Part shown: in pieces, positions 18,420-34,083 of the stretch
Layout: each line of letters opens with the position of its first letter
Position numbering within the stretch: position 1 is the stretch's first letter
Origin: Gammaproteobacteria bacterium
GTDB taxonomy: Bacteria > Pseudomonadota > Gammaproteobacteria > Ga0077536
NCBI GenBank assembly: GCA_963662545.2
Contig: CAXXLL010000003.1
Span: 1,312,001 to 1,376,000 of the forward strand
DNA length: 64,000 nucleotides
Direction of reading: 5' to 3'
Made by a program: the position numbers and the translations under genes
Notes under the pieces: model-generated
What the model was told of the DNA's origin: nothing
Seen by the model: the letters and a program-made list of their open reading frames with translations, nothing else
Database searches by the model: none

Positions 18420-19328
18420 TTACCCGACCGGACCCAACTCTTTGGTAAAGAAATCGATCGCCAGCTTGTTCGATTGCGTCAACCCGGGCTCCGAATAAAG
18501 CCCCGTTTGGTCGAACGGCAAAAATTCAAGCCGTTTGGGCTCGCGCGCACGCTCGAACAGTTCAGCGACGCTCCACGCCGGGTGGACGATGTCGCGGCCG
18601 GAAGTGCTGATGATGAGATAGGGACGCGGCGTGATGCGATGGACGAAGGACAGCGGGCTGAATTCGATAATTTTTTCTATGGACTCAAGCGTAATCGAAT
18701 CCTTCCAGGTTGGAAACGCTTCCGGTACACCCTCGAAAAATTCCATGATCCCCGCGTCCGAAGGCATGCCACACAGGCTTCCTTGCGGGCCGAGCACCGG
18801 AATTCGATCGCCTCTGCCACCGGCAAAGCGCTTCGCACGGTCGGCTTCGACCGCCGCTAGTAATTCATCGAAGTTGACTTCGCTACGCAGAAGTTTCATC
18901 CACGTATAGCCATCCGTCACGGGCACCATGGCACAGACTGCTTTGGCACGGCGATCAATGGCCCCTACATAGCTCACCACAGCTCCAGCAAAACTCGCGC
19001 CCCAGATACCGATGCGTTTGGGATCGACGTTGCGTCGCGATTGCAGATAACTGATGCCGTTGCGGAAGTCCTCCGCTTCGTTAAGCGGGAATAACTGGCC
19101 GCGCGGTTTACCACCCGCTTTGCCGAACGTGCGGTAGTCGATTGCAAGCACGATGAAGCCGGCCTCACAAAAGGCGGTAGCCTGTTGAGTCAGAAACGAT
19201 TTGTTCAGCGAAAAACCATGGCCGATGACGAGGCCGGGGCGGCGCTCGCTGCGCGCAAGGCCTGACGGTTTGTATAGATCTGCGGTGCAATCAACGCCGC
19301 CGCTCTTGAAAGAAATCTCTTTTACCAT
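18420..19328 (-). CDS. Alpha/beta hydrolase (peptidase S15/CocE-like N-terminus)
   Basis: IGHGFS, IDYRTFG, nucleophile elbow GIWGASFAG. Confidence 0.88.
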   Translation of the reverse strand: MVKEISFKSGGVDCTADLYKPSGLARSERRPGLVIGHGFSLNKSFLTQQATAFCEAGFIVLAIDYRTFGKAGGKPRGQLFPLNEAEDFRNGISYLQSRRNVDPKRIGIWGASFAGAVVSYVGAIDRRAKAVCAMVPVTDGYTWMKLLRSEVNFDELLAAVEADRAKRFAGGRGDRIPVLGPQGSLCGMPSDAGIMEFFEGVPEAFPTWKDSITLESIEKIIEFSPLSFVHRITPRPYLIISTSGRDIVHPAWSVAELFERAREPKRLEFLPFDQTGLYSEPGLTQSNKLAIDFFTKELGPVG

Positions 19329-19379
19329 TTTGGCTTCTCCTCGCAACACGTAGTGTCGAAAATATTTTTGAAAGGGGTG

Positions 19380-19829
19380 TCAGCCCGATTCCTCGAGGCG
19401 GAACACCGGATACATTTCGGCAATTTCGTTGAACGATTCGAGATCCGCATCGGCGCCGATCGGGAAGTAGCGCCTGACCTCGGTTTGATATGCATTTAGA
19501 TACGCCTTGAGCAAAGGCGCCCTCTCGTCGGTGCCGAGCTCCGTCACGGGATAGGTCCGGGCCGAGGCGCCGCGCCGCAAGACGACCGCCCCCGCGGCTC
19601 TCGCGTTTCGCACCCATTGTGTTTGACCGCGTGGTGCGACGAGATAAGTGCAGCCATCCACCTCGATCGGATCAACCGGCGTTGCATATCGACGACCGGA
19701 GCGCCGTCCCCGCACTTCCAATACGCGCATGTGGCCCGGGCCAATACCGAGGCTGATGAGTTTACCAAGCATCTTGTTGAAGAATGCTTCAATGACGGTG
19801 GCACACCTGAACTCAGTCGACCTATTCAT
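19380..19829 (-). CDS. Ddn-like deazaflavin-dependent nitroreductase-family (split beta-barrel) protein
   Basis: LEVRGRRSG...TPV, WVRNARAAG, C-terminal YPVFRL. Confidence 0.8.
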   Translation of the reverse strand: MNRSTEFRCATVIEAFFNKMLGKLISLGIGPGHMRVLEVRGRRSGRRYATPVDPIEVDGCTYLVAPRGQTQWVRNARAAGAVVLRRGASARTYPVTELGTDERAPLLKAYLNAYQTEVRRYFPIGADADLESFNEIAEMYPVFRLEESG

Positions 19830-19859
19830 CGCCAGCGAGCGGTTCTCTGTACGGTCATG

Positions 19860-20645
19860 CTACTGGCGGGCGGCGGTGCCGCCGTCAATCGGCAGCACCA
19901 CTCCGTTGCAATAGGTCGCCTCGTCGGATGCGAGATAAAGACAACCGTAAGCCATTTCCATCGGCGTGCCGGCCCGCGCCATCGGCGTGAGATGTTCGGC
20001 GATCACGGGATCGTCGAAGATGTTCATGACGTCGGCGATCATCGGTGTATCGGTATAGCCCGGGCAAACGCAGTTCGTACGGATATTTTCCTTGGCATAG
20101 GTCGTCGCCATCGCGCGGGTGAGGTTGATCACGCCGCCTTTGGACGCGCAGTAAGTGTGCGCGGTCGTCATGCCGAACATGCCCGAAAGGCTGGCGACGT
20201 TAACGATCGAGCCCCCGCCCTGCTTCTGCATGATGGGGATTATGCCGTGACACAAGTAGTAGCATGCATCGAGATTGATGCCGATCACTTCGTGCCACTT
20301 TTCAGGCGGCGTTGTCGCGATATCGTTCATCGAGTTTTCGCTTTTGTGGCTCCAACTCCAACCGACGCTTGCGGCGTGAACGAGAATATCGATGCGGCCA
20401 TAGGCGCTCATGGTCGCGTCGATTACGTTTTGCGCCTCGGCCTCCGATGAAAGATCCGCGGCCACTACCATGCCCTCGCTACCCGCCTTACGGACTTTAA
20501 TCAACGTATCGTCCAGTGCCGACTGCGTTCTCGATACACCGACTGTCGTCGCGCCTTCCTCGGCAAAGAGCATCATGCACGCCTCACCGATACCCGATCC
20601 GGCGCCGGTGATGATTGCGATCTTTCCTTCTACTCGTCCCGCCAT
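19860..20645 (-). CDS. SDR-family NAD(P)-dependent oxidoreductase
   Basis: TGAGSGIG, YCASKGG, NCVCPG. Confidence 0.93.
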   Translation of the reverse strand: MAGRVEGKIAIITGAGSGIGEACMMLFAEEGATTVGVSRTQSALDDTLIKVRKAGSEGMVVAADLSSEAEAQNVIDATMSAYGRIDILVHAASVGWSWSHKSENSMNDIATTPPEKWHEVIGINLDACYYLCHGIIPIMQKQGGGSIVNVASLSGMFGMTTAHTYCASKGGVINLTRAMATTYAKENIRTNCVCPGYTDTPMIADVMNIFDDPVIAEHLTPMARAGTPMEMAYGCLYLASDEATYCNGVVLPIDGGTAARQ

Positions 20646-20656
20646 CTTAGTTTCCC

Positions 20657-21844
20657 CTAGATCATTTCGATCAACGTGGCATTCGCCATGCCGCCGCTCT
20701 CGCACATCGTCACCAGACCGCAACGCCCGCCCCGTGCTTCGAGCGCGCGCAGCAGGTTGGCAACCAGGCGCCCGCCCGAAGCGCCGACCGGGTGGCCGTG
20801 CGCGATGGCGCCTCCAAACACATTGAGCTTTTCGGGATCGGTACCAAATTCCTTCGCCCACGCCAAGGGTACGGAGGCAAAGGCCTCGTTGACTTCATAG
20901 GCATCCACCTGGTCGAGCCCGATTCCGGCCCGCTCCAGAAGTTTAGTCGTCGCGGGGATGACGCCGGTCAACATCATGACCGGGTCGTCGCCGGCGACGG
21001 CGAAATGCGTCACGGCGGCGCGCGGTGCGAGCCCGAGCCGTACGGCGATCTTCTCTTCGGCGATGAGCATCGCGCTCGCGCCGTCGGTCACCAGGCTCGA
21101 ATTGCCTGCCGTGACACGCCATTCGATTTCCGGAAACCGCTGTTTCATTTCCTCGTTCTCGAAAGCCGGCTTCAAGCTGGCAAGTTTTTCCAGGGTCGAG
21201 CCCGAGCGAATGCCTTCGTCTTCGGCAACGATCCGCTTGACGCTTGCGTCGGTGTCGATTTCGATCGGTGCGATGTCTCCGGCGGCGCCGCCTCGATCGC
21301 CCTCGGCGAGTTGATGGGATCGCAAAGAAAAGCGATCGAGTGCCTCGCGGTCAAGCCGCCAGCGTGCCGCGATCAGTTCCGCGGAGATACCCTGCCGTAC
21401 CAGCCCTGCGGGGTAACGCGCGTGAAAACGGCCGCCCTCATTGTCCTTACCCATCCGATTGACGCGCATGGGGACGACGCTCATCATCTCGACGCCGCCC
21501 GCAATGACAAGATCGTAGGCGCCGGCGATGACGCCTTGCGCCGCAAAATCCATCGCCTGCTGCGCGGAGCCGCACTTGCGATCGAGCGTGACGGCCGGCA
21601 CCGATTCGGGCAGGCCCGCTGCCAGGACCGCCTGTCTCCCGATGTTGCCCGCCTGTTCCGCGACCTGGATCACGCAGCCGGTGATGACGTCCTCGATCAG
21701 GACCGGGTCGATCCCCGTCCGCTGGACGAGTGCCTCGAGCACGTGCGCGTATAGATTAACCGGGTGCAGCGAAGCCAGAGCGCCCGTGTCGCGACCGCGC
21801 CCGAACGGCGATCGCACGATATCGATGATGACCGCGCGGCGCAT
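20657..21844 (-). CDS. Thiolase (acetyl-CoA C-acyltransferase)
   Basis: DRKCGS catalytic Cys, NEAF, GHPVGASG, TMCESGG. Confidence 0.94.
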   Translation of the reverse strand: MRRAVIIDIVRSPFGRGRDTGALASLHPVNLYAHVLEALVQRTGIDPVLIEDVITGCVIQVAEQAGNIGRQAVLAAGLPESVPAVTLDRKCGSAQQAMDFAAQGVIAGAYDLVIAGGVEMMSVVPMRVNRMGKDNEGGRFHARYPAGLVRQGISAELIAARWRLDREALDRFSLRSHQLAEGDRGGAAGDIAPIEIDTDASVKRIVAEDEGIRSGSTLEKLASLKPAFENEEMKQRFPEIEWRVTAGNSSLVTDGASAMLIAEEKIAVRLGLAPRAAVTHFAVAGDDPVMMLTGVIPATTKLLERAGIGLDQVDAYEVNEAFASVPLAWAKEFGTDPEKLNVFGGAIAHGHPVGASGGRLVANLLRALEARGGRCGLVTMCESGGMANATLIEMI

Positions 21845-21967
21845 GTCTAATTTGCTGTCCCGCAATAAGCCTTCATAATTCGCTGGTCCTCGCGCCTTGT
21901 ATCGCACCACGAGTCCTGCGGGACCCAATGACAAATATTATTGGGAAGTTTATTACGGGACAGTACA

Positions 21968-23428
21968 TTAGCTCGACTTGCGTAGCGACAGTTCGAGATC
22001 GCTAGATATGACCTCGATCACGGGCGAAGTCGCGAGCTGCATGAGTCGCCGCACCTGATCGAGTTCGGGCGAGGAGAGATACGGATAAGTCGTCTTGACC
22101 GGGCCGGAGGTCCGCATTTTTTCGAGGCCTTCGCCGGCGACGAGCGCACATAGGATCAGTTCGTCATCGTCGTCGGTACCGTACTCCTTGCGCAGGTCCT
22201 CTATGCTCGGTTGTGGCGGGGGATTCGCTAATACCTCCTTCGCGCGTGCCGAGGACATGATCATGTCCATGACACTTTCATCGATTGGGCCGGCGGTTTC
22301 TCCATAATAACCGGCGGCATACTGAATGACTTGGTCCGGGATCGAGGAATAGCGCTTGCCGGTTACGATGTTCAGCACCGCCTGGGTGCCCACGAGTTGG
22401 CTAAAGGGTGTCGCCATTCCAGGATAACCGAGTTCGCGGCGAACCACCGCGGTTTCCTCGAGCACTTCGTCGATGCGCTCTCGCATGCCGTGCTGCACGA
22501 GTTGCGCCTTAAGCGTGCCGATCATGCCGCCCGGGATCTGATGCCGGATCGAGAGCACGTCGTACTCCGAATACTGATTGACCAGAAAACCTGCCGCTTT
22601 GCCGACTTTTTCGAAGTGCTCCGCCACCGGCGGCAGCAGACTGATATCGAGATCGTGAGTGTGTCCCAGCAGTTCAACGTTGCGCACCATGATCTCAGTG
22701 GAGGGCACGGAAGGGCCGTTAGCCAGCGGACGGATAGCGGTGTGCAGAATACGCACCCCCAGATCGATGGCATCGAGGTAGGCTTTGGCAGACTGTCCAA
22801 GCAGATTATTCGAATGGAATTCGATGGGCTTGCCCCGCGCTTTCTCGCGGATGGCCGGCAGCAAGGTCGCCATGCGCTCCTTCTCCAGCACACCGGCCGT
22901 ATCGTAGAGCAGGAGCGTGTCGATGTCCGGTGACGCCGACAGCTTGTCCGCCTTATCCGCGTAGTATTCGTCCGAATGTACCGGGCTCAAGGTGAACATG
23001 ATCGCACCCGCGATATCCGATCCAAACTCCTTGGCAAGCTTCGCCAGCCGCAGCGTCTTATCGATATTGAACAAAACGTCGTAGATCCAGAAGCTGCGCA
23101 CGCCGTGCACGTTCAACTGCCGCATCCACGCATCCATCAATGCGTCCGGCGTTACGCCGAAAGTGACCGAGGCGTTGGAGCGCATGCCGGCGCGGATCCG
23201 CGTGCGCGGCATCGAGGCCACGATCAGGTCGAGGCCCTCCCAGGGATTTTCATAAGAATACTTGATGAGAACCTCGAACATGGACGAACCGGTCAGGTCG
23301 ACGACCCAGTAGCCCGTGCGATCGATTATCGGTGTCACGGGCAGCGCCATGCCCGCCTGCATGCGCATGCCCCAAAGGCTTTGCTGCCCGTCGCGCATGG
23401 TTTCATCGAGAAAATTAATGTGGGCCAT
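21968..23428 (-). CDS. Pyruvate-carboxylase/OadA-type carboxyltransferase subunit (XccA-like), stand-alone
   Basis: DETMRDGQQSL, HQIPGGM, LGYPGMATPFSQLVGTQA; no biotinyl domain fused. Confidence 0.88.
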   Translation of the reverse strand: MAHINFLDETMRDGQQSLWGMRMQAGMALPVTPIIDRTGYWVVDLTGSSMFEVLIKYSYENPWEGLDLIVASMPRTRIRAGMRSNASVTFGVTPDALMDAWMRQLNVHGVRSFWIYDVLFNIDKTLRLAKLAKEFGSDIAGAIMFTLSPVHSDEYYADKADKLSASPDIDTLLLYDTAGVLEKERMATLLPAIREKARGKPIEFHSNNLLGQSAKAYLDAIDLGVRILHTAIRPLANGPSVPSTEIMVRNVELLGHTHDLDISLLPPVAEHFEKVGKAAGFLVNQYSEYDVLSIRHQIPGGMIGTLKAQLVQHGMRERIDEVLEETAVVRRELGYPGMATPFSQLVGTQAVLNIVTGKRYSSIPDQVIQYAAGYYGETAGPIDESVMDMIMSSARAKEVLANPPPQPSIEDLRKEYGTDDDDELILCALVAGEGLEKMRTSGPVKTTYPYLSSPELDQVRRLMQLATSPVIEVISSDLELSLRKSS

Positions 23429-24827
23429 CGACGGTTTCTCTCTCGTTCATTTTAAGTTCGGGTAAATAAGTGTGTTCGAGCCAGCGGGTATGAATGGTAT
23501 TGGCTTCGAAATCGGGGTGGGCGGTGATGCCGCGCAAAATTGGCAGATTCGTAACCAGGCCTTCGATCTGAAACGCGTCCAGCGCAAGGCGCAACCGCGC
23601 CACGGTCGCGCGCCGATCCGCGGCAGTGACGATCAGCTTCGCGATCATTGAATCGTAAAATGGGGGCACCTGGTAGCCGTCGTGACAATGGCTGTCGACG
23701 CGGATCCCGGCTCCCTCGGGCGGCCGCCACCGCGTGATGCGGCCCGGACACGGCTGGAATCCGCGGGAGGGATCTTCGGCATTGATGCGGCATTCGATCG
23801 CATGCCTGGTAACGTGGATCTGATCCTGTCGACCCAGGACGCGTTCGCCACCGGCGATACGGAACTGCGCCTGAACGAGATCGACGCCTGTCACCTGTTC
23901 ACTGACCGGATGCTCGACCTGAATGCGGGTATTGACCTCGATGAAATAATAAGCTTCACGACCGGCGTCGTAGATGAACTCCACGGTCCCGGCGTTCATG
24001 TATTTCATCGACGACAGCAAGTCCACGGCGGCTTGATGGAGCTCATGGCGGACATGTGGGGGCATTGCAGCGCAGGGCGCTTCCTCGATGACCTTCTGGT
24101 AGCGACGCTGCACCGAACAGTCGCGTTCACCGTAATGCACGACGCGCCCCTTGCCGTCACCGATCACCTGCACCTCCACGTGCCGCGCGTTCTCGATATA
24201 GCGCTCCATGTACATCGTGCCGTCGCCGAAGACCTCCTCGGCCTCGGCGCTGGCTTTGTCGAATGAGGATTCGATATCACTCGCCTCGCGAGCCACGAAC
24301 ATGCCGCGACCGCCACCGCCGGCAGACGCCTTGATGACGACTGGATAGCGGATTTCTTTCGCGGCGACGACGGCCGCGCCCGCATCGGCAATTTGATCGG
24401 TGCCGGGGGCCAGCGGCACGCCCGCCGCCGCGGCAATTTCTCGCGCGCGGAGCTTGTCACCCAAGGCGTCGATGGTGCTGGCGCTGGGCCCAATGAAAGT
24501 GATCCCGTTATCCGCGCACAGGGTTGCGAGCTCGGCGCGCTCCGCAAGAAAGCCGTAACCGGGATGGAGCGCATCACAGCCCGTCGCCTTCGCCGCGTGT
24601 ACAACAAGCCTGGCGTCGAGGTAGCTTTGCCGGGAAGGCGCCGGTCCGATAACCACGACCCGGTCGGCCATACGTGCGGCTACGCTGTCGCGGTCCGCTT
24701 GGGATACCGCCTGCACGGTTTCGATGCCGAGCGCCTGCGCGGCCCGGATTACCCGTACCGCGATCTCACCGCGATTGGCCACCAGAGTGCGCTTGACGGC
24801 CACTGTTCCGGGATTACCTGATGGCAC
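23415..24827 (-). CDS. Biotin carboxylase subunit
   Basis: ANRGEIA, HPGYGFLAE, GGGGRGM, ERDCSVQRR, EVNTRIQVEH, YDSMIAK. Confidence 0.96.
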   Translation of the reverse strand: MPSGNPGTVAVKRTLVANRGEIAVRVIRAAQALGIETVQAVSQADRDSVAARMADRVVVIGPAPSRQSYLDARLVVHAAKATGCDALHPGYGFLAERAELATLCADNGITFIGPSASTIDALGDKLRAREIAAAAGVPLAPGTDQIADAGAAVVAAKEIRYPVVIKASAGGGGRGMFVAREASDIESSFDKASAEAEEVFGDGTMYMERYIENARHVEVQVIGDGKGRVVHYGERDCSVQRRYQKVIEEAPCAAMPPHVRHELHQAAVDLLSSMKYMNAGTVEFIYDAGREAYYFIEVNTRIQVEHPVSEQVTGVDLVQAQFRIAGGERVLGRQDQIHVTRHAIECRINAEDPSRGFQPCPGRITRWRPPEGAGIRVDSHCHDGYQVPPFYDSMIAKLIVTAADRRATVARLRLALDAFQIEGLVTNLPILRGITAHPDFEANTIHTRWLEHTYLPELKMNERETVDGPH

Positions 24828-24865
24828 CGTTTGGGCGGTGGCGAAAAAAGAAATTTTTCACCCGT

Positions 24866-25330
24866 TCATCGGGCACTTGGATCGATGATGGCCAGGGGTT
24901 GATCGAATTCAACCATCTCCGCATCGTTGACGCAGATCTCGTGCACCACGCCCGCCACTCCGGCCCTGACCGGGGTGAATAGTTTCATGACCTCGATGAG
25001 GCAGATCTCGGTGTCCTCCTCGATCGCCTGCCCGATTTCGACGTACGACGGTGAGCCGGGCTTAGGTGCGCGGAAAAACGTCCCCAAGTTCGGCGCGCAC
25101 ACGACCACCATGCCCTCAGGAATCACCACCGGGGCCGGCGCTGCGGGCTCATGGGGCGTCTCACCCGTGGACGCGGCTGCCTCCAACGCTACGGCACGCG
25201 GACCTCGGGCTCCTGGGACGTTGGACAGAAAGAGTTCCAGGCCCTCGATCTTGAGGTGCATTTCCTCCCAGTCGGATTGATTAAAAAGGTCGACGAGGGT
25301 CTCGATGTCCTCGGCGCTCGGCTTGGTCAT
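24866..25330 (-). CDS. Biotin carboxyl carrier protein
   Basis: APNLGTFFRAP, biotinylation motif EVMKL, VEFDQPL. Confidence 0.93.
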   Translation of the reverse strand: MTKPSAEDIETLVDLFNQSDWEEMHLKIEGLELFLSNVPGARGPRAVALEAAASTGETPHEPAAPAPVVIPEGMVVVCAPNLGTFFRAPKPGSPSYVEIGQAIEEDTEICLIEVMKLFTPVRAGVAGVVHEICVNDAEMVEFDQPLAIIDPSAR

Positions 25331-25526: not shown

Positions 25527-27284
25527 TCAGTCGTCCAGCGTACCGGCTCGCGCATGGATGGCCGCAAGCATCACCACCAGCGGATGCCGCGCAACGATCG
25601 ACTCGACGCCGCACGACAGCGCCGCCTTAACGCCCGCGTCGGTCTCGATGGCGCCGCCCCGCACGGCGCGGCAACCGTTCAACAAGCCCGCAAGCTTCTC
25701 CGGATCCTCCGCGCCGTCAATGCCATCCAGATCGAGCAACTCATGCTCCACGGTCACGTTGGTGGCGAGCACGCGTAGTGGACACGCCTGTGCAGCCCAA
25801 TCGGCTAGTTTGCGCAAGCACGGATCATCGGCTTCGCTGGGCGAAATCATGTCGAGTTCACCGGCGAATACCCGCCCCTCGTTGGCATCGACCGTCACCA
25901 TCTCGCCGGCGAGCGCTGTGACTGAGCCATCGCCGCAACCGACGATACTCGGTTTACCGAGGTCACGGCTGACGAGCGCCGCGTGCGAGGTCGAACCGCC
26001 CCGCTCGGTGATCACGGCTTGGCTCGCGATGATGCCGTGAATGTCTTCCGGACTTGTCGTCGCGCGCGCGAGTACGACGTCTTTACCGGCAGCCTGTAGT
26101 TTTTCCGCTTCATCGGAGTCGATCACCACGACGCCACGCCCCACCCCCTGGCAGGCCGGTTCGCCTTGCGCGAGAACGCGCGCGCCCTCCTCGGCCCGCT
26201 GCGCGAGCCGCGGTTTGAGCAAGGACCGGACCTGCTCCGCCGTGACCCGTGACAAGGCGGTCGCCGGCTCGATTCTCCCCTCGTCCACCATGTCGACGGC
26301 GCAGCGGACCGCCGCCTGCGGTGCACGCTTGGCCGAACGGGTCTGCAATAAAAACAATGTCCCTTGCTGCACGGTGAATTCTATATCCTGAACGTCATTG
26401 TTCGCGTCTTCGAGCGTCCGCGCGGCGCGCACCAGTTGATCGTAAACTTCGGGCAGTGCTTCGCCGAGCGCGCTCAAGGGTTCAGGCGTAAATTTTCCCG
26501 ACACCACATCCTCGCCCTGCGCGCAATGAAGGTATTCACCATAAGGGGCTAAATCGCCCGTCAACGGATTGCGGCTGAACAGGACGCCCGTCCCGGAACG
26601 ATCGTCGAGATTGCCGAACACCATGGACTGTATCGTCACGGCCGTACCGAGGTTGTCTGCAATGCCGTGATGCTTGCGATAGCGCTTGGCGCGTCGGGAA
26701 TTCCAGGATGCGAAGACCGCCTCGATCGCGGCCCTTAACTGCACGCGCGGATCCTCGGGAATCTTCCCTGCGCCGAGTTTTTCGATGACGGCCCTGAGCG
26801 TCCGTAGATCGCCGTCACCGAGGTCCGGCAAGGTCTGCCTGAGCACGATGCTCGCATAGAGTTCGAGGAATCGACGGTGGGTATCGCGCGCGAAGGCGTC
26901 GTCACCGGACTCCGCTGCCAGTGCGCGCTCGGTGGTATCGTTGATGCCGAGGTTCAGCACGGTATCCATCATGCCGGGCATGGAAATCGCAGCGCCCGAA
27001 CGCACCGACACGAGCAGCGGCCGATCGCCCGCCCCGAAATCCCGTGCCGTGGCGGACTCGAGCCAGGCGATGGCCGCGTCGAGTTCCGCCTCCAGCTTTT
27101 CCGGAAGCGCCGAGGATTCGAGATAAACCTGGCAAGCAGCCGTCGTAATGACCACCGCAGGCGGTACCGGCAGGTCCAGGCTTCGCATGTGCGCGATCGA
27201 CCACGCCTTACCACCGATCACTGCGCGCGTGGGTAGCGCACTCCCATCGATCGCCAGGATGAATTGACCGAACTCGTGTGCCAC
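25527..27284 (-). CDS. PPDK-like protein (ATP-grasp plus phospho-His domains, lacking the C-terminal pyruvate/PEP-binding barrel)
   Basis: LLVSVRSGAAISMPGMMDTVLNLG, AQGEDVVSG, QDIEFT, LQTR, GGSTSHAA; only ~100 aa follow the His domain. Confidence 0.88.
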   Translation of the reverse strand: MAHEFGQFILAIDGSALPTRAVIGGKAWSIAHMRSLDLPVPPAVVITTAACQVYLESSALPEKLEAELDAAIAWLESATARDFGAGDRPLLVSVRSGAAISMPGMMDTVLNLGINDTTERALAAESGDDAFARDTHRRFLELYASIVLRQTLPDLGDGDLRTLRAVIEKLGAGKIPEDPRVQLRAAIEAVFASWNSRRAKRYRKHHGIADNLGTAVTIQSMVFGNLDDRSGTGVLFSRNPLTGDLAPYGEYLHCAQGEDVVSGKFTPEPLSALGEALPEVYDQLVRAARTLEDANNDVQDIEFTVQQGTLFLLQTRSAKRAPQAAVRCAVDMVDEGRIEPATALSRVTAEQVRSLLKPRLAQRAEEGARVLAQGEPACQGVGRGVVVIDSDEAEKLQAAGKDVVLARATTSPEDIHGIIASQAVITERGGSTSHAALVSRDLGKPSIVGCGDGSVTALAGEMVTVDANEGRVFAGELDMISPSEADDPCLRKLADWAAQACPLRVLATNVTVEHELLDLDGIDGAEDPEKLAGLLNGCRAVRGGAIETDAGVKAALSCGVESIVARHPLVVMLAAIHARAGTLDD

Positions 27285-27318
27285 GGTGATGGTTGATGGG
27301 GTCGGTTGAAGGCTACAT

Positions 27319-27391
27319 TGAAGGGGTCAAGTCTTCAACTTTCTACATGACGTTTTACGTCATGTAGAAAGTTGAAGACTTGACCCCTTCA
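27319..27391. repeat. Perfect 35-bp-arm palindrome with GGGGTCA ends
   Basis: TGAAGGGGTCAAGTCTTCAACTTTCTACATGACGT-TTT-ACGTCATGTAGAAAGTTGAAGACTTGACCCCTTCA, followed by an extra half-site AGACCTGACCCC. Confidence 0.92.
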
Positions 27392-27416
27392 GGCCCCAGA
27401 CCTGACCCCGTTTTTA

Positions 27417-28655
27417 TCAACGCCCGAGCAGCGTGATGCAGGCTACCGCCTCCTCGAAACCGCAGATGCCGCCGCCGTTCTGGGCGATGGCGATTTTTGC
27501 ACCCTCGACCTGGCGTTTACCGGCTTCGCCGCGCAGGTGGGTCACGAGTTCATAAATCTGTCCGAGACCCGTCGCACCGATCGGATGGCCCTTGGATTCC
27601 AGACCACCGGATGGGTTGACCGGGATACGGCCACCGAGGCTGGTGTCGCCACGTTCGCCCGCGACGCCGCCTTCACCGATGGGACACAGACCGATAGCCT
27701 CGGTTTCCATGACCTCGCCGGTCGCAGTGGCGTCGTGTACCTCGGCGACATCGACATCTTCAGGTCCGACACCCGCCTGCTCGTAGGCCTTGAACGCGCC
27801 GAGCCGACTGGCGTGTTTTTCGAGATCGGCCGCGGCGCGATTGCTGCCCCCCTGTAGCACGCTCGCCAGCACGCGCATCGTGCGCGACCCCGACGCACCG
27901 ATGCGCTTAAGCCCGGCCTCGTTGCATACGATGGCGGCAGCAGCGCCGTCGCTCACGGGAGAGCACATCGGCACGGTTAGAGGATAGGTGATAGGCGCGG
28001 CTGCCAGGATCTCGTCTACGGTAAACGCTTTTTGGTATTGCGAAAGCGGATTCATGGTCGAATGGTTGTGGTTCTTCGAGGCGATCGCGGCGAGCTGGCG
28101 CTGCGTCGTTCCGAATTCGCGCATGTGCATGCGAGAAAATCCGGCGTAGACGTCCATGAATACCGAGTACGGGCGCGGCGAGGTGGACCCTTCGGGTACC
28201 TCGACCCCTTCGCCCAGTTGCAGCAACTGGTTCTTGACGTTCTCTACGTCGTTCACGTCCCAGGCGCCGTCGAAGGCGCTGAACATGAGTTCCTTATCCT
28301 CGGAAAACATCTTCTCGACGCCGATGGCGAGCGCGATGTCCGCGGCGCCGGCCTTGACGTAATTCACTGCCATGTGGAAAGCGGTGCTGGCGGTCGCACA
28401 GGCGTTTTCGACGTTGACCACCGGGATACTCTCGATACCGAAGGCCCGGAGCGCAATCTCGCCGCGCACCATGTCCTGGCCCTCCATGTGACCCTGAACG
28501 CAATTGCCGAAAAAGACCGCCTCAAGGGCTTTGACGTCGCAACCGGCATCTTTGAGCACGCCGGCTAGGGCTTCGCCGGCGAGGTCTTTCAGACTGCGAT
28601 CGAGGTGTTTACCGAAATGCGTCATGCTGACGCCGGCCACGTACATTTCACTCAT
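27417..28655 (-). CDS. SCP2-type thiolase (BbsB/lipid-transfer-like)
   Basis: [32 protein letters not shown]. Confidence 0.92.
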   Translation of the reverse strand: MSEMYVAGVSMTHFGKHLDRSLKDLAGEALAGVLKDAGCDVKALEAVFFGNCVQGHMEGQDMVRGEIALRAFGIESIPVVNVENACATASTAFHMAVNYVKAGAADIALAIGVEKMFSEDKELMFSAFDGAWDVNDVENVKNQLLQLGEGVEVPEGSTSPRPYSVFMDVYAGFSRMHMREFGTTQRQLAAIASKNHNHSTMNPLSQYQKAFTVDEILAAAPITYPLTVPMCSPVSDGAAAAIVCNEAGLKRIGASGSRTMRVLASVLQGGSNRAAADLEKHASRLGAFKAYEQAGVGPEDVDVAEVHDATATGEVMETEAIGLCPIGEGGVAGERGDTSLGGRIPVNPSGGLESKGHPIGATGLGQIYELVTHLRGEAGKRQVEGAKIAIAQNGGGICGFEEAVACITLLGR

Positions 28656-28862
28656 GATCCTGTTCCTCTCAACTTTTCACCGCATACCGCAGGCGCGGGA
28701 TTTTTCGGAGCCGACTATGTTACTGGGCTTGGGACGTTCTTTGCCACTCGGAACGGCAGGATACGGCTGCACCCCTGCTAAGCCCGGAAATCTCACCGGG
28801 AATCGGGATCCTGGTCCAAGCCCGCCTCGTGAGATATCCAGGCCAGGCCAACGGCGGCATGG

Positions 28863-28891
28863 TTGACAAGGGACGCCGTGTCGCAGAGATT
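28863..28891 (+). promoter_or_regulatory. Possible sigma70 promoter for the acx-like operon
   Basis: TTGACA, 17-bp spacer, then GAGATT; the -10 match is weak. Confidence 0.3.
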
Positions 28892-29063
28892 GTGTTTAGC
28901 GCGCCCGATCGCGCCAATAACAATGAAAGAGCTCAATCGCCCGAACCGTTTGAACTAAGCAATTGCTGCGCACCCGTACGGTAACGCCGGGAATCCGCAT
29001 CCAATACAAAAAGAGCCCTGCGGGGTCACAACTCCGCGGGACGACCATCGAGGAGCAGGAAAT

Positions 29064-31211
29064 ATGGCTGCGAGAAGGCCACGCGCCCGCAAAGGCACTA
29101 ACTGGATAGCGCTCGACGCCGGCGGCACCCTGACTGACGCCGTCATCGTTGATAAGCAAGGGCAGTTTCTGGTCGGCAAACATCTGACCAACAAACAGGA
29201 CGAATCACAAAGTTTCCTCGGCGCGATCAGAGACGCTACCGACACCGCGGATCGCGACCTCGACCAGACGCTTGGCGCAAGCGACGTCATCGTCTACGCC
29301 GGTACCATCATGTTGAATACCCTGCTCAGCAAGACCGGTGCCAAAGTCGGTCTCATGGTCAGCCAGGGCTTCGAAGACTATCTGCTGATGGAGAAAGGCG
29401 AAGGCTCCTGGATCAGCTATCCGTATTCCGATCGCCTGCATACCGTGACACACCACCACGCGGATCCCACGATCCCGCGCAACCGTATCGTCGGCATCCA
29501 GGGGCGGCTCGATATGTTCGGCGGCGAAGTCATCCCGCTGCGGAAATCCGATGTCGAAGAACAGACCCGGGTGCTAATCGATGAAGGCGCCGAATCGATC
29601 GCGGTGATGTTCCTGTTCTCACACATGGATCCAGTGCATGAACAACTCGCCGCCAAACTCATCCGTAAGATCGATAAAAAAATTCCGATCATTCTCTCTT
29701 CCGAAATCGCCCCCACGCACAAGGAATACACCCGTCTGTCGAGCGTGGTCGCGCAGGCCTATGCGGGTGAGCGTGCGCGAACCCATTTCAAGCGGGTCGA
29801 GGCGCAAGCGCGCGCCCATGGGTTCAACAAGGAAGTGTCCACGCTTCTCGCACACGGTGGAACCGTTCCGATCAGCACCAAGCGACTCTACGAATCCTAC
29901 GTCTCGGGTCCCGTGGGAGGGGTACTGGGCGGTCACTACGTGGGCGAAATCATGGGCTCGGGCAACGTCGTCGGCTGTGATATCGGCGGCACCAGTTTCG
30001 ACGTCGGCATCATTCGCGACGGTATCATCCCGATCATCCGCGAACCGACCTTGCTCAGTTTCCGTACCAACATCCCGATGATCCATACCGAGTCGATCGG
30101 CGCCGGCATGGGCTCAGAACTCGACGTGCATCCGCTGACCGGCAAATTGACGGTCGGGCCGAAAAGCGCGGGCTCCGACGTCGGACGCTGTCTCAATTGG
30201 GACTTACCGACCGTCACGGACTGCCACATCCTGCTCGGCTACCTCGACCCGAACAATTTTCTCGGCGGCGACGTGCCGCTGGATCTGGATGCCGCGGTCA
30301 AAGCGCTCGAACCGATGGCCAAGCATTTCAACACCAAGACCTACGAATTCGCGGAACGCGCCCATCTGCTGGTGTGCGACTACATGAAGGAATTTCTGGT
30401 CAACATGCTGCGCGGACGCGGCTACGACATCCACGAATACGTTCTGATGATGTACGGCGGTGGCGGACCGCTAGGCCTTGCCGACGTCGTCGAGGGACTG
30501 GAATTCAAGGACATCGTCACGTTTCCGTTCGCCGCCGTATTCTCCGCCTTCGGCGTGCTATGCGCGCCGCGGCGCTACCGCTACCACCACAGCATCGTAG
30601 CGGGCTGCCCGCCGGGCGTGGACGATCACATCGTGGGGGTCAAGCAAGCGGCGATCGAATCCATCAACGCCACCTGGAAGCAACTGGAGGCGCGCGCCAA
30701 AGCCGATTTCAAAGGGCATGGCTGGAACTTCAGCGACGCCAAGCTCAACCATTTTGTCTACGTCCGCTTCACCAACCAGTTATCGGACTTCGAGGTGTTG
30801 TGGGACAGCCCGCGGCTCAAGTCGACCGCCGAGCTCGACCAGTTGATGAAACGTTTCGAATCGGTCTACACCACGATCTATCCCGAACAGGCACTGGAGT
30901 CGGAATCCGGCTACCAGATTCTCGAGGTGGCGCTTGCGGCCGACATCGACACGCCTAAGCCGAAGATCCCGATCATGACGATGTCCCGCAAAAAGCCGCC
31001 TTCGGCATCCGAAAAAGGATCGCGCAAGGTTTACTATCGGGGCAAACGCCGCGAATTCCGCGTTTACGAAATGGACGAGCTCAAGGCCGGCAACGTGGTC
31101 AACGGTCCCGGCATTATCGAGCATCCGGCGACGACGTTTTATATACCGCCCGGGCATCACGCCGCATTCGACAAGCGGCGCCTGATTCACTATCGCAAAG
31201 GCACGAAATAG
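29064..31211 (+). CDS. acxA: Acetone-carboxylase beta-subunit-like protein (hydantoinase A/oxoprolinase family)
   Basis: LDAGGTLTD, SGPVGGVLG, DIGGTSFDV, YGGGGPL, GPGIIEHPATT; 715 aa. Confidence 0.88.
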   Translation: MAARRPRARKGTNWIALDAGGTLTDAVIVDKQGQFLVGKHLTNKQDESQSFLGAIRDATDTADRDLDQTLGASDVIVYAGTIMLNTLLSKTGAKVGLMVSQGFEDYLLMEKGEGSWISYPYSDRLHTVTHHHADPTIPRNRIVGIQGRLDMFGGEVIPLRKSDVEEQTRVLIDEGAESIAVMFLFSHMDPVHEQLAAKLIRKIDKKIPIILSSEIAPTHKEYTRLSSVVAQAYAGERARTHFKRVEAQARAHGFNKEVSTLLAHGGTVPISTKRLYESYVSGPVGGVLGGHYVGEIMGSGNVVGCDIGGTSFDVGIIRDGIIPIIREPTLLSFRTNIPMIHTESIGAGMGSELDVHPLTGKLTVGPKSAGSDVGRCLNWDLPTVTDCHILLGYLDPNNFLGGDVPLDLDAAVKALEPMAKHFNTKTYEFAERAHLLVCDYMKEFLVNMLRGRGYDIHEYVLMMYGGGGPLGLADVVEGLEFKDIVTFPFAAVFSAFGVLCAPRRYRYHHSIVAGCPPGVDDHIVGVKQAAIESINATWKQLEARAKADFKGHGWNFSDAKLNHFVYVRFTNQLSDFEVLWDSPRLKSTAELDQLMKRFESVYTTIYPEQALESESGYQILEVALAADIDTPKPKIPIMTMSRKKPPSASEKGSRKVYYRGKRREFRVYEMDELKAGNVVNGPGIIEHPATTFYIPPGHHAAFDKRRLIHYRKGTK

Positions 31212-31244
31212 ATCGCTGTGCCGAGTTACGAGACGATTAATGAA

Positions 31245-31302
31245 TCGCCCGCAAGCCGGCCCCTACAACATTGCCTCCGTAGGAGCTCGCTTGCGGGCGA
31301 AC
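31245..31302. repeat. Inverted doublet of GTAG-family REP elements
   Basis: TCGCCCGCAAGCCGGCCCCTAC...GTAGGAGCTCGCTTGCGGGCGAAC, between acxA and acxB. Confidence 0.75.
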
Positions 31303-31330
31303 AACGCTACCAGATGAAGGAAATCCTTCC

Positions 31331-33562
31331 ATGACCAAGCACATGACCTTATTGGAACGCCTCGACCTGTCCGAAAAGCTTTACGAGCAGACCGGTCATT
31401 ACCAGGGTCTTAAAAAGCTCGCCGTACACGACAAGGATCCGCTCAAGTTCGAGGCGTTTCACTCGCGCCTTCTCTCGACCATCATATCGGTGCGTGAAAC
31501 GATGAAGTACATCGCCTCGTCGCCGGCCATTCGCGACTTCGAGGAGTTCGTCATCGGCCTGTATACACCCGAAGGCGATGCCATCGCACTTTCGACCGGC
31601 ATCATGGTGCACGTGCACACCCTGTCTGAATTCATCAAGTTCATGATCCGCAACGACTACGAGGACGACCCCTGTATCCGGCCCGGCGATATATTCGAGA
31701 ATAATGAATCATGGGCGGGCGGCGTGCACACCCCGGACGTCATGACTTGCATCCCCGTCTACCACGAGGGCGAACACATCGCGTGGATCGGATCGGTGTC
31801 GCACGAGCTCGAATCGGGGACCTACGAAGGTCCGGGCATGACCGTATTCTCGCCCGATCGTTTCGGCGAGGGCCTGCACATCAGCGCCGAGAAGGTCGGC
31901 GAGAACGACCATTTCAGGAAAGACTATTTCATGCGCCTGAAGATGGGCCTGCGCAATTCGAATTGGTGGCGGCTGGACGACAAGGCCAAGCTCTCCGGCT
32001 GCCTCATGATCCGCGAGGCGCTCGGCAAGATCATTGCGCAGTTCGGGATCGACTATTACAACCGGGGCACCAAAGAACTCATCGAGGAAGGTCGCCGGAA
32101 TTTTATCAAGCGCGTTAAAACGACGATGGTGCCGGGAACGTATCGCGGTATGACCATGCCGGTACACCGCCGCTCGCACCTGCCTTTTACCCATCCCCTG
32201 GCGAAGGGTGATTTCATCGACCTGGTACCGAACGAGATGACCATCACGAAGGACGGCCACATCGAGCTCGACTTCGAGGGCGCCACGAGCTGGAGTTTCC
32301 ATCCCTTTAACTGTGCTGTCGGCCCCATGAACGGGGGCTTCTGGATCACCCTGACCCAGTTGTTGAACTACGACGGGCGCGTCAACGACGGCGCCTACCT
32401 CGCCGTCACGCAGTATCTCCCGGAAGGCTCGATCGTGAACGCCAATTACGCCGGCGCCGCGACCTCGCTGGCGTGGTGGACGCTGATCCCGATTTTCGCG
32501 CAGGTCTGGCGGATGTTCGGCATCAGCTGGTTTGCGCGCGGGTTCACCGAGGAGATCATCATGTCGACCCCGACCTGCATCGTCGGCGTCGCCGGCTTCG
32601 ATCAATACGGCGAGCAGCATGGCTTCCAGAATTTTGAGATGGCCGCCGAATCCTGCGGCGCGCGCGGCGTCGCGGACGGCGTCGACTGCGGCAGCCCGAT
32701 CTGGAACTCCGAAGGGATACAGGGTGACGCGGAAGTCTGGGAGATGACCGGGCCCAACGTGTACCTCGGCCGCAGCTTCGTACCAAACCACCATGCGCTC
32801 GGACGCTTCCGCGGCGGTGTGGCCTGGGAGTCACTGTGGGTGGTGCGCGGTTCGCGCTTGGTCAACGTAACACTGTCGGCCTCGGGCGTGCATAACGGCG
32901 GCATCTTCCACAAGGGTCTGTTCGGCGGCTACCCGGCGCCCGGCTGGAAATGCCTGTGGGTAAGGGGTTCGAACCTCGCAGAGATCATCGCCCGCGACGA
33001 CAAGGTTCCGAGCAGCATCAACGAAGCCGAAGCGATGCTAAAGGACGGGACTTTGACCGCCGAGGAATGGTATTGCGGGCCGCTCAACACCTGGTCGCCC
33101 AACCTGTCCGATGGCGATTTATTCGGGGTGAACTACAACGGCGGCTGCGGATACGGCGATCCGATCGAACGCGACCGTGCTCTGATCGAAAAGGACCTCT
33201 TCAACGGCCTGACCACGCCGGCATTCGCGCGCAAAGCCTACGGCTATGCCAAGACCGAGAAAAAGACGGCGGAGCTGCGGGCGGCAATTCGCAAGAAGCG
33301 CTTGGCCGAGTCGGTGCCGGCTTCGCAATGGTGGCGAAACGAGCGTAAACGCGCGCGCACAGGCGAGGTCGGCAAGATTGCCGCGCAGACCTTTGCACGT
33401 TCAGCGCAGATGTCCGACATGATCAAGGACAAATATCTGAAATTCTGGCAGCTCAAGAAATTCCCTTATACCGACGCGGGCAACATCGACTTCCGTACGA
33501 CGGCGCCGACGGGATTTTATTACCCGAAATCGCCCGTAAAGCAATACCAGAAACCGGCCTAA
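31331..33562 (+). CDS. acxB: Acetone-carboxylase alpha-subunit-like protein (hydantoinase B family)
   Basis: LSTGIMVHVHT, metal ligands HTPD and SHELE, GGCGYGDPIER. Confidence 0.88.
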   Translation: MTKHMTLLERLDLSEKLYEQTGHYQGLKKLAVHDKDPLKFEAFHSRLLSTIISVRETMKYIASSPAIRDFEEFVIGLYTPEGDAIALSTGIMVHVHTLSEFIKFMIRNDYEDDPCIRPGDIFENNESWAGGVHTPDVMTCIPVYHEGEHIAWIGSVSHELESGTYEGPGMTVFSPDRFGEGLHISAEKVGENDHFRKDYFMRLKMGLRNSNWWRLDDKAKLSGCLMIREALGKIIAQFGIDYYNRGTKELIEEGRRNFIKRVKTTMVPGTYRGMTMPVHRRSHLPFTHPLAKGDFIDLVPNEMTITKDGHIELDFEGATSWSFHPFNCAVGPMNGGFWITLTQLLNYDGRVNDGAYLAVTQYLPEGSIVNANYAGAATSLAWWTLIPIFAQVWRMFGISWFARGFTEEIIMSTPTCIVGVAGFDQYGEQHGFQNFEMAAESCGARGVADGVDCGSPIWNSEGIQGDAEVWEMTGPNVYLGRSFVPNHHALGRFRGGVAWESLWVVRGSRLVNVTLSASGVHNGGIFHKGLFGGYPAPGWKCLWVRGSNLAEIIARDDKVPSSINEAEAMLKDGTLTAEEWYCGPLNTWSPNLSDGDLFGVNYNGGCGYGDPIERDRALIEKDLFNGLTTPAFARKAYGYAKTEKKTAELRAAIRKKRLAESVPASQWWRNERKRARTGEVGKIAAQTFARSAQMSDMIKDKYLKFWQLKKFPYTDAGNIDFRTTAPTGFYYPKSPVKQYQKPA

Positions 33563-33573
33563 GGGGACGAACA

Positions 33574-34083
33574 ATGGCAACACAAGCACAAAGCGATAAA
33601 GAAGTGACCCGCGCGCTCGTCCGCCGCGAGCTGGGCTGGCCGGAACTGTTCAAGCTGATGCGCGAACCAAAATCCGAAAACCGCTTCGACGATATGCTCG
33701 CGGCGATGCAGGAGATCGTGCCGTGGAAAGAGAAGATCCTGATTCCGCTTGGTGAAAACCTCTTCATCGTCGCCAAGAACGGCAAGGCCATCATCAAGAC
33801 CATGGCGGGCGCCGAACTCTGCGCCTGGAACGAGAACTGGAAGATGAAATGCCGTGTCATCATCAGAAAGACGACGGCGGATCTGAAAAAGGTGTTCCCG
33901 GCGGAACACCTCACCATCGATAGCAAGCTGGTCGAGATCCGCGAGTGGATCTGTCCCAAGAGCGGCATGCTGCTCGACGTCGACTGCGTGCCGCCGACCT
34001 ATCCGGTCGAGATCGACTTCACGCCGGATTTAAAGACGTTCTATGAAGATTGGCTGGGCCGGAAACTTCCCGTAAAACTCTGA
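33574..34083 (+). CDS. acxC: Acetone-carboxylase gamma-subunit-like protein
   Basis: 169 aa; ILIPLGENLFIV, ENWK, REWICP, DFTPDLKTFYEDWLG. Confidence 0.85.
   Translation: MATQAQSDKEVTRALVRRELGWPELFKLMREPKSENRFDDMLAAMQEIVPWKEKILIPLGENLFIVAKNGKAIIKTMAGAELCAWNENWKMKCRVIIRKTTADLKKVFPAEHLTIDSKLVEIREWICPKSGMLLDVDCVPPTYPVEIDFTPDLKTFYEDWLGRKLPVKL

Follow-up and report, generated by a model that had tools for sequence, protein, structure and literature searches.

What is a truncated dikinase doing in an operon-like array of biotin-dependent carboxylase genes, and why does that array stand back to back with genes for an acetone-carboxylase-like enzyme? The locus that raises this question lies at positions 18420–34083 of a 64-kb stretch of DNA from a soil or water bacterium of the Gammaproteobacteria (contig CAXXLL010000003.1, positions 1,312,001–1,376,000; the whole stretch is referred to below as the window). 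It consists of two divergent arms, a left arm of nine genes on the minus strand, running from 28655 down to 18420, and a right arm of three genes on the plus strand (29064–34083). A first-pass annotation made from the sequence had proposed that the arms form an undescribed pathway using two carboxylase chemistries. Both chemistries are indeed encoded, as domain scans and matches to solved structures place a biotin-dependent carboxylase on the left and an acetone carboxylase (Acx)-like enzyme on the right. We describe the left arm as a putative reduced member of a widespread, uncharacterized operon family that combines a VadK-type dikinase with a three-subunit biotin carboxylase and a thiolase. 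By analogy, this family, sister to the Hpe, Acv, and MarK systems, probably works like them. In the reading that we prefer, to which we give about an even chance, the locus encodes two ketone-carboxylating modules, Hpe/Acv-like on the left and Acx-like on the right, which would probably act on different ketones and share the thiolases and a short-chain dehydrogenase/reductase (SDR).

Phosphorylation-dependent, biotin-driven carboxylation of ketones was first found in 2022, and two kinase types have been described for it, both serving lignin-derived hydroxyphenyl ketones. HpeHI of Rhodococcus rhodochrous GD02 phosphorylates 4-hydroxyacetophenone or acetovanillone, HpeCBA carboxylates the phosphorylated ketone only, HpeD strips the phosphate, and a ligase (HpeE) and a hydrolase (HpeF) complete the route (PMC9618137). 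The Acv genes of Sphingobium SYK-6 (AcvAB/AcvCDE) are homologous to Hpe (bioRxiv 10.1101/2022.04.28.489975), and HpeHI is described as an RPH-like two-component dikinase (PMC12167813). MarK, a UPF0261 kinase, represents the second kinase type, and the survey of 17,510 genomes that accompanies it covered the MarK and AcvAB/HpeHI types only (PMC12624787). A kinase beside a biotin carboxylase is therefore an established design (PMC9618137; bioRxiv 10.1101/2022.04.28.489975; PMC12624787), a precedent that the first-pass annotation had missed in treating the dikinase as an oddity. Its description of the system as new holds in a narrower sense: nothing was found in the published literature on the combination of a truncated dikinase with a biotin carboxylase, nor did the papers listed on marine acetone carboxylase and on R. 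oxybenzonivorans bear on these genes; the supplements of these papers may list clusters with other kinase types. The window has separate genes for a biotin carboxyl carrier protein (BCCP), a biotin carboxylase (BC), and a PycB-type carboxyltransferase (CT), contiguous at 21968–25330, as in the Hpe-, Acv-, and MarK-type systems. No UPF0261 domain and no HpeH-like protein were found in the arm, and its sole kinase is a truncated, VadK-type relative of pyruvate, phosphate dikinase (PPDK). The CT, the dikinase, and the Acx-like proteins all fall in uncharacterized clades and do not group with ordinary characterized enzymes.

The dikinase aligns with solved PPDKs only to about residue 543 of an 874-residue chain, and it comprises the ATP-grasp and swivelling phospho-His domains without the phosphoenolpyruvate (PEP)/pyruvate TIM barrel. 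The catalytic histidine, His434, is retained in an unbroken TERGGSTSHAA motif; the pattern GGxTSHA[AS] was matched in 116 of 120 close homologues, and all 120 are 553–619 residues long. Weak similarity to the linker of PPDK and to the first strand of its barrel (8/8 full-length PPDKs) is confined to the first 35 or so residues of the 108-residue tail. An assignment of the tail to the last β-α unit of the PPDK barrel was also considered and is unsupported by the comparison with full-length PPDKs. In a tree of 26 rows, which used 8 of the 120 close homologues and omitted the partial sequences of loci L005 and L009, the truncated PPDKs form one clade (support 100/100) that is separate from the full-length enzymes. 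The dikinases linked to a CT are not cleanly monophyletic within it: those of Proteobacteria group together (85/90), a Rhodococcus pair stands apart, and the dikinase of L008 falls among the non-linked ones.

By its domains, profile score, and position in this tree, the dikinase is classed in the VadK family, named for Mycobacterium tuberculosis Rv1127c, now VadK (PMC13400623). In that report, VadK autophosphorylates on the histidine equivalent to that of the window dikinase, co-purifies with its operonic partner Rv1126c, and is without a known small-molecule acceptor, and pull-downs recover methylcitrate-cycle enzymes; ATP- and Mg-dependent autophosphorylation is demonstrated there for Rv1127c only (PMC13400623). 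PPDK-like kinases also occur without a carboxylase on plasmids of Rhodococcus sp. ZPP (L087), Methylibium petroleiphilum PM1 (L088), and Diaphorobacter (L089). The kinase is truncated in L087 and L089 and 843 residues long in L088, and its neighbours in these plasmids are Rieske oxygenases, histidine- or tyrosine-family phosphatases, and AMP-binding ligases. These plasmid loci suggest that catabolic pathways make general use of VadK-type dikinases.

The CT carries no BCCP domain, and among solved structures it comes closest to the β chain of a pyruvate carboxylase with two subunits (5ks8, 227 bits). It scores below the cut-off on all ten equivalog models for PycB, OadA, 5S, and pyruvate carboxylase (scores of 318.6 and 272, for instance, where the cut-offs are 402 and 734, respectively). 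Alignment with 5ks8 and 2nx9 reveals that RDGHQS (the RDAHQS motif) has become RDGQQS, that the carboxylated lysine (KCX) is replaced by Tyr175, and that the HxH motif reads H205-S-N207; two of the four canonical metal ligands are replaced, as is the histidine of RDAHQS. We take the roles of these residues (a metal site of Asp, KCX, His, and His) to be those given in the structural literature on pyruvate carboxylase, 5S, and oxaloacetate decarboxylase. By motif counts, the tyrosine and the sequence HSNN are present in 120 of the 120 closest CT homologues and RDGQQS in 116, and the altered residues are invariant in all 18 rows of the CT alignment. Because the tyrosine and HSNN are kept in every one of these homologues, the site appears to have been remodelled under selection and not to be decaying.

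The relationship of this CT to those of the known kinase-coupled systems was examined with a tree of 11 rows. In it, the plasmid loci L084 (hpeHI-like) and L083 (MarK-like) represent the two established kinase types as proxies that were chosen by synteny and annotation and are not the characterized proteins themselves. The seven CTs linked to truncated dikinases group together (99/98), with the CTs of L084 and L083 as their sister group (100/97), and PycB and a split CT of Burkholderia fall outside the kinase-linked clades. The window CT is not nested among the hpe- and marK-type proteins; it belongs to the sister clade and is about 36% identical to each proxy, both of which retain the KCX lysine and the HxH motif. 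The Tyr/HxN changes are also present in alphaproteobacterial and Thermoleophilia CTs whose loci have a full set of accessory genes. The Burkholderia CT belongs to another split CT/BCCP/BC set (L085; Burkholderia sp. THE68 plasmid, 116373–128839), in which the canonical CT ligands are present and which adjoins genes for an acetoacetate decarboxylase, a carbonic anhydrase, and an acetate symporter.

The left-arm core recurs in other genomes. A genome scan, of which the best 80 of at least 596 stretches were examined, used a generic PPDK motif that drew mostly full-length PPDKs, and 71 of the 80 are not close relatives. In the comparison of neighbourhoods, tblastn matches with less than 50% query coverage and AMP-binding matches below 150 bits were dropped, and a locus needed at least two different matches. 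Four of the 80 scanned loci hold a truncated dikinase together with a CT, namely L001–L003 from alphaproteobacterial metagenome-assembled genomes (MAGs) and L008 from a Thermoleophilia MAG. Three plasmid loci do as well: L081 (Novosphingobium resinovorum pSA1), L082 (Rhodococcus pyridinivorans pA), and L090 (R. oxybenzonivorans pRB98). The truncated dikinase, BCCP, BC, CT, and thiolase recur in all seven of these distant loci, from Alphaproteobacteria and Actinomycetota, which bears out the conserved synteny that had been suggested as a check. In L001–L003 the genes run dikinase-BCCP-BC-CT-thiolase, colinear with those of the window, and the order is near-identical in L082 and L090, a recurrence that takes the arrangement of the core beyond chance. 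The four genes from dikinase to CT are contiguous in the window and in five of the seven distant loci, and BC and BCCP are adjacent in six. As had been pointed out, the CT gene of the window is followed by one for a thiolase, and in six of the seven distant loci a thiolase gene comes no more than two genes after that of the CT.

The distant loci carry further genes. A protein of about 250 residues with a swivelling PEP-utilizers His domain is encoded in six of the seven (L003 ends at a contig edge), and all seven contain a protein of about 520 residues without a known family (L001:1889–3451; partial in L003), a protein of about 200 residues directly upstream of the dikinase (L001:4929–5531), and one or two AMP-binding ligases. 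Phosphatases are present in five of the seven (Y_phosphatase3 in L002, L082, and L090; His_Phos_1 in L008; SurE in L002 and L081), which fits a phosphorylate-then-dephosphorylate logic. A 263-residue "hypothetical protein" annotated in L002 proved to be an antisense reading of the SurE gene. To judge by this gene content, the distant loci have the build of a small-molecule dikinase system of several components that has its own phosphatase, ligase, and thiolase. In the window, acxABC and an SCP2-type thiolase flank the core in place of the accessory genes.

Two of the accessory proteins bear on how the dikinase may work. The 200-residue protein adjoins the truncated dikinase in L001–L008, L081, L082, L087, L089, and L090, including loci in which no carboxylase is nearby (L004–L007, L087, and L089). 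An Atlas model of this protein matches parts of PPDK-like proteins of 757 and 787 residues (TM 0.86 and 0.81), so fused forms exist, and the protein probably corresponds to the VadK partner Rv1126c. For the 520-residue protein, Pfam and NCBIfam returned nothing even at E = 1, and neither the Atlas nor, by profile, the Protein Data Bank (best E 1.4) gave a match. A confident model of it (pLDDT 92, pTM 0.92) returned no Foldseek match in the Protein Data Bank at E ≤ 0.001, with a best TM of about 0.1, and no relationship to the HpeH-like protein was detected. Three of its 15 scanned relatives, all distant, are fused to an N-terminal PEP-utilizers domain, and we regard it as a candidate for the acceptor module in a dikinase of a new type.

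The features of the window that bear on this argument are collected in Table 1.

Table 1. Genes and other features of the two arms and the nearby SurE gene, in window coordinates.
Feature	Position	Strand	Evidence
SCP2-type (lipid-transfer-like) thiolase, first left-arm gene	27417–28655	minus	Thiolase_C_1 125 bits; Thiolase_N 79 bits
Truncated PPDK-like protein, 585 aa	25527–27284	minus	PPDK_N and PEP-utilizers; NF004531 735 bits (cut-off 456)
BCCP	24866–25330	minus	Biotin_lipoyl 58.5 bits; TIGR00531 98.7 bits (under cut-off 115)
BC (ATP-grasp)	23415–24827	minus	NF006367 607.7 bits (cut-off 597); all three BC Pfam domains
PycB/OadA-type CT, 486 aa	21968–23428	minus	PYC_OADA 98 bits; HMGL-like only 19 bits
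Thiolase II (acetyl-CoA C-acyltransferase type)	20657–21844	minus	TIGR01930 401 bits (cut-off 240)
Classical SDR	19860–20645	minus	adh_short_C2 185 bits; TGxxxGIG and YxxxK motifs
Ddn/F420H2_quin_red-like small protein	19380–19829	minus	PF04075 30.8 bits (cut-off 22)
Alpha/beta hydrolase (esterase or lactonase-like)	18420–19349	minus	Peptidase_S9 39 bits
Divergent intergenic region	28656–29063		408 bp
Acx β-like subunit (Hydantoinase_A, ATP-binding)	29064–31211	plus	three Hydantoinase_A domains; 462 bits to 5m45_B
Acx α-like subunit (Hydantoinase_B)	31331–33562	plus	437 bits to 5m45_A
Acx γ-like subunit	33574–34083	plus	Acetone_carb_G 100 bits; 110 bits to 5svb_C
SurE phosphatase	14545–15324	plus	NF001490 315 bits; 3.1 kb from left arm

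All 12 genes of the locus were confirmed from the open reading frame (ORF) list and from Pfam and NCBIfam scans, in the places and with the divergent region of about 400 bp that the first-pass annotation had given. Its statement that the cluster contains no CoA ligase or regulator was also upheld: no AMP-binding and no DNA-binding domain was found in the 12 cluster proteins or in the 37 other window ORFs scanned. In the left arm, intergenic gaps are 196 nt at most and the BC and CT genes overlap by 14 nt, a spacing consistent with an operon. The true starts of the SDR and thiolase II genes are most likely the internal ATGs at 20645 and 21844, with which the apparent overlap of these two genes vanishes. 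The SCP2-type thiolase retains its nucleophilic cysteine in an NACATAS motif and is 55% and 49% identical to the SCP2 thiolases of L002 and L081, respectively. Thiolase II, in which the Cys, His, and Cys motifs are all found, is 64–68% identical to the thiolase that follows the CT in L001–L003, and the SDR is 50% identical to the one situated downstream of the thiolase in L003. BCCP contains an EVMKL biotin motif. The Ddn-like protein (TIGR00026, 44.9 bits, slightly below the cut-off of 46.35) and the alpha/beta hydrolase (92.5 bits against the UilS lactonase model, well under its cut-off of 400) have no counterparts found in the related loci.

Other parts of the window contain genes of catabolic character. 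Five luciferase-like monooxygenase genes (9229–14122, 49729–50988, and 55447–56511) occur in addition to that for the Ddn-like protein, in what appears to be a gammaproteobacterium. A malonyl-CoA decarboxylase is encoded at 40092–41390. At 56527–59492, a family III CoA-transferase, the sole candidate in the window for activation of a β-keto acid, adjoins an acyl-CoA carboxylase β subunit. On the minus strand at 4682–8184, a decahaem-type cytochrome (7213–8184) adjoins an MtrB/PioB porin that is divided between two adjacent ORFs, 5255–7204 covering profile positions 25–493 and 4682–5248 covering positions 503–635; such a split may stem from a sequencing error, a frameshift, or a stop codon. As to substrates, the P450, the Rieske oxygenase, the luciferase-like monooxygenases, and the esterases encoded around the cluster offer no more than a hint of hydrophobic or aromatic compounds.

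By homology, the right arm is classed as a divergent relative of acetone carboxylase. The VHTPD and SVSHE segments of its α subunit align with VHPCD and GVTHV of 5m45_A (H-x-x-D...H), in which the His, Asp, and His residues are, we assume, the metal ligands of Acx. The γ subunit keeps two of the five cysteines of two aligned Cys motifs, which we take to be the Cys-rich zinc site of Acx. Against the acetophenone carboxylase Apc, the β-like subunit scores 298 bits (Apc γ) and the α-like subunit 138 bits (Apc δ). The α subunit is about 40% identical to plasmid-borne and named acetone carboxylases, which is below orthologue level, and it belongs to a clade apart from these, with about 45 clusters at an identity of at least 65%. 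Members of this clade (at least 70% identity) are also found in Streptomyces, Pseudonocardia, Frankia, Nitriliruptor, Binataceae, and a Sterolibacterium MAG.

Whether the two arms form a unit was addressed through the contigs on which their relatives lie. Residence on the same contig was judged indirectly, from contigs of equal size across protein searches, and the counts are among the matches listed. The dikinase and CT lists, compared with each other as a control, have at least 11 equal-sized contigs in common. In at least nine cases, a contig that carries the Acx α-like protein also carries the CT or the dikinase. On contigs of 48050, 15136, 25916, and 5809490 bp, the proteins belong to the 90% clusters of the window's own. 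The other five are more diverged from the window: 38786 bp (Acx 89%, CT 83%), 5915696 bp (Acx 84%, dikinase 73%), 2958668 bp (Acx 81%, CT 82%), 2590748 bp (Acx 82% cluster, dikinase 75%), and 6297714 bp (Acx 82% cluster, CT 86%). On the 48,050-bp contig, from a MAG, the accession numbers of Acx and its partner are 6 apart, as the window gene order predicts. No acx homologue was found in any of the seven distant loci within the spans examined, and the CT clade, with over 120 clusters at no less than 80% identity, is far larger than the Acx clade, with roughly 45 at no less than 65%. The pairing is real but confined to the window's close relatives; since the core stands without acx in all seven distant loci, it is a lineage-specific trait and does not define the system.

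The intergenic region contains no sigma-70-like site (3 sites in 17.6 kb against 6.2 expected) and no Rfam family, and sigma-54-like matches with two mismatches allowed occur at chance frequency (29 against 25 expected). No gene for a sigma-54 activator was seen in the window. A 15-nt imperfect inverted repeat (28782–28796 and 28829–28843; 87% complementary, with 32 nt between its arms) is a possible operator. The only perfect TGGCAC-N5-TTGCW in the 64 kb lies at 29328–29343 on the minus strand, about 270 nt inside acxA and directed toward the left arm.

As we infer the catalytic steps, ATP-driven phosphoryl transfer by way of phospho-His434 of the dikinase would ready the ketone substrate, BC and BCCP would produce carboxybiotin, and the modified CT would place CO2 on the carbon adjacent to the carbonyl to yield a β-keto acid. 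After CoA activation, a step to which no gene in the window is assigned, the thiolases would split the product. The SDR would provide the ketone from a secondary alcohol, and the Acx-like enzyme would carboxylate a ketone directly with consumption of ATP. Most likely, each arm serves ketones of its own and the thiolysis downstream is common to both, which would be in parallel to Aromatoleum, where Apc is associated with acetophenone and Xcc with 4-hydroxyacetophenone.

Several observations weigh against this scheme. The CT is without two ligands that the Hpe- and MarK-type proxies keep, and its chemistry may accordingly differ from that of HpeCBA. Homologues of the 520-residue, 200-residue, and swivel-His proteins were not found in the 64 kb by tblastn and profiles in six frames, and the window ORFs scanned contain no AMP-binding ligase, in contrast to all seven distant loci. 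With neither an acceptor-binding kinase part nor a CoA ligase, an Hpe-like scheme is incomplete here unless these are encoded elsewhere in the genome. The left arm contains no phosphatase, nor does the rest of 18420–34083. The SurE phosphatase outside it is 48–51% identical to the SurE proteins encoded within L002 and L081 (NF001490 scores of 296 and 305 bits), and the HAD hydrolase gene that adjoins it (15513–16235) has no similarity to the HAD genes of L083 and L084 at E ≤ 1e-3. SurE and the HAD protein are possible phosphatases of the system or may be housekeeping proteins, their position being suggestive only. Most core-bearing contigs of at least 100 kb (5706739, 401168, and 471487 bp and about 20 more) are without Acx among the matches listed, and no promoter, sigma-54, or RNA element connecting the two arms was found.

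These last points lead to the alternative that the arms are independent modules that happen to be adjacent in a gene-rich catabolic region, with the left arm functional or not on a substrate of its own and the Acx-like enzyme acting on acetone or butanone. It accords with the lack of acx in the distant loci and of a shared regulatory element, with the occurrence of the Acx clade in Actinomycetota, Binataceae, and Sterolibacterium beside a much larger CT clade, and with the richness of the window in oxygenases, hydrolases, and thiolases. Set against this are the persistence of the pairing in relatives whose proteins have diverged to 73–89% identity, an immediate spacing wherever it can be judged (accessions 6 apart; contigs of 15–39 kb), and a head-to-head layout around a 408-bp shared control region, which is typical of co-regulated modules. 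We consider chance adjacency unlikely.

A second alternative concerns the dikinase alone, which might be a VadK-like autophosphorylating His kinase that binds and tunes the carboxylase or the thiolases and does not phosphorylate a small-molecule substrate. The window protein passes the NF004531 cut-off, is without an acceptor domain, and stands apart from the accessory proteins seen in the distant loci. The autophosphorylation of VadK, its want of a known small-molecule acceptor, and its pull-down of methylcitrate-cycle enzymes would be in keeping with such a role, but the regulatory model itself rests on pull-downs and medium-confidence predictions (PMC13400623). The distant loci argue for a different function: their dikinases sit with a swivel-His protein and an acceptor-like 520-residue protein, 3 of whose 15 scanned relatives are fused to PEP-utilizers, the 200-residue partner matches parts of longer PPDK-like proteins structurally, and phosphatases complete the anatomy of a multi-component small-molecule dikinase. 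A purely regulatory dikinase is, in our estimate, quite improbable.

The preferred reading keeps phosphorylation and carboxylation as successive steps on separate enzymes; a third alternative merges them. In such a hybrid, peculiar to this lineage, the dikinase histidine would pass its phosphate not to a remote hydroxyl but to the enolate oxygen of the ketone at the CT, or exchange it with the Acx-like enzyme, and carboxybiotin would carboxylate the enol phosphate as phosphate is lost, the Acx genes having replaced the acceptor module (the swivel-His and 520-residue proteins) found elsewhere. PPDK and PEP synthase work by phosphorylating an enolate oxygen, and acetone carboxylase probably goes through phosphoenolacetone. 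The CT has lost the KCX lysine and one of the histidines that normally hold the enolate-stabilizing metal, with strictly conserved replacements, the dikinase, BCCP, BC, and CT genes are contiguous in the window and in most of the distant loci, and acxABC stands by the core where the four kinase-accessory and ligase genes of the distant loci are missing. These missing genes may simply lie beyond the 64-kb window, however, and the Tyr/HxN changes, which also occur where the full accessory set exists, are not tied to the reduced form. The phosphatases of the relatives argue for a stable phospho-intermediate, and the ATP cost would exceed that of Acx alone. We regard the hybrid mechanism as distinctly doubtful.

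In an equally doubtful form of this idea, the VadK-type dikinase would be an integral fourth subunit of the carboxylase, its phospho-His phosphorylating the enolate oxygen of a ketone not activated in any other way at a metal-less CT site and carboxybiotin displacing the phosphate. If true, this would merge the enol-phosphate chemistry of acetone carboxylase with biotin chemistry in one enzyme and point to an ancestral catalytic role for the VadK family; in the lineage of the window the minimal four-protein form would act alone, and the neighbouring Acx-like enzyme would cover a second class of ketone.

That these are ordinary anaplerotic enzymes, as the public names of homologues ("pyruvate carboxylase," "oxaloacetate decarboxylase alpha," "pyruvate, phosphate dikinase") and the match to the PycB chain 5ks8 would have it, is highly improbable given a CT that misses every PycB/OadA equivalog cut-off and has two metal ligands and the RDAHQS histidine replaced, a dikinase without the PEP/pyruvate domain, and a setting beside thiolases and an SDR and not among genes of central metabolism.

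If the two-module reading holds, the cluster and its relatives point to a third kinase type for phosphorylation-dependent ketone carboxylation, built on a truncated PPDK (VadK) and on a CT without two canonical metal ligands. It is abundant among uncultured Gammaproteobacteria, and cultured strains of Novosphingobium and Rhodococcus have it too. A wider compound range for the phosphorylate-then-carboxylate route would follow, as would a biochemical context for what VadK-family kinases phosphorylate, and the 520-residue protein without a solved structural relative would be marked as a likely acceptor module. The pairing with Acx is a smaller, lineage-specific point.

In terms of known systems, the right arm resembles AcxABC of Xanthobacter autotrophicus (5m45 and 5svb) in its three subunits, in their order β-α-γ, and in having Acx chains as its best solved matches, whereas it differs in its identity of about 40%, in the loss of most of the γ-subunit cysteines, and in the absence of a sigma-54 activator gene nearby. 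It is far nearer to Acx than to Apc (5l9w), with α-subunit scores of 437 and 138 bits, respectively. The dikinase of the left arm shares with VadK the domain architecture, the NF004531 score above cut-off, the catalytic His motif, and membership of the truncated-PPDK clade. VadK, however, adjoins its partner Rv1126c and methylcitrate-cycle genes, whereas the window dikinase has no partner of about 200 residues and sits in a carboxylase operon.

The left arm as a whole resembles the Hpe and Acv systems in placing a dikinase of the PEP-utilizing family beside a split BCCP, BC, and PycB-type CT, with a product that would be converted to a CoA ester and then cleaved. It differs from Hpe in that its kinase is one chain with ATP-grasp and His domains, not the RPH-like HpeH/HpeI, with similarity to the Hpe kinase at the domain level only (28–30% over 130–177 residues). 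The CT, at about 36% identity to the Hpe-type proxy, is without its KCX lysine and second histidine, and the arm has thiolases instead of a β-ketoacyl-CoA hydrolase and neither a HAD phosphatase nor a CoA ligase. The MarK-acvCDEF cluster of Novosphingobium aromaticivorans shows that the kinase partner is interchangeable, and the CT of its proxy, L083, groups with the Hpe type beside the window clade. The MarK kinase fold (UPF0261/Tm-1-like) is unrelated to that of the window dikinase, and the MarK-type cluster has a HAD phosphatase and a CT with canonical ligands.

A split biotin carboxylase, XccABC, has also been proposed for 4-hydroxyacetophenone in Aromatoleum aromaticum EbN1, an organism in which Apc serves the non-hydroxylated ketone. 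Compared by description, the two EbN1 systems lie in separate clusters, and, according to the Hpe report, the Xcc genes are likewise found with homologues of hpeHI and not beside a gene for a VadK-type kinase (PMC9618137). By analogy, the window may mirror the EbN1 division of labour between Apc and Xcc. With the same predicted architecture and logic, another kinase, and another CT site, the window system is best described as a relative of the Hpe/Acv design and not as a member of it.

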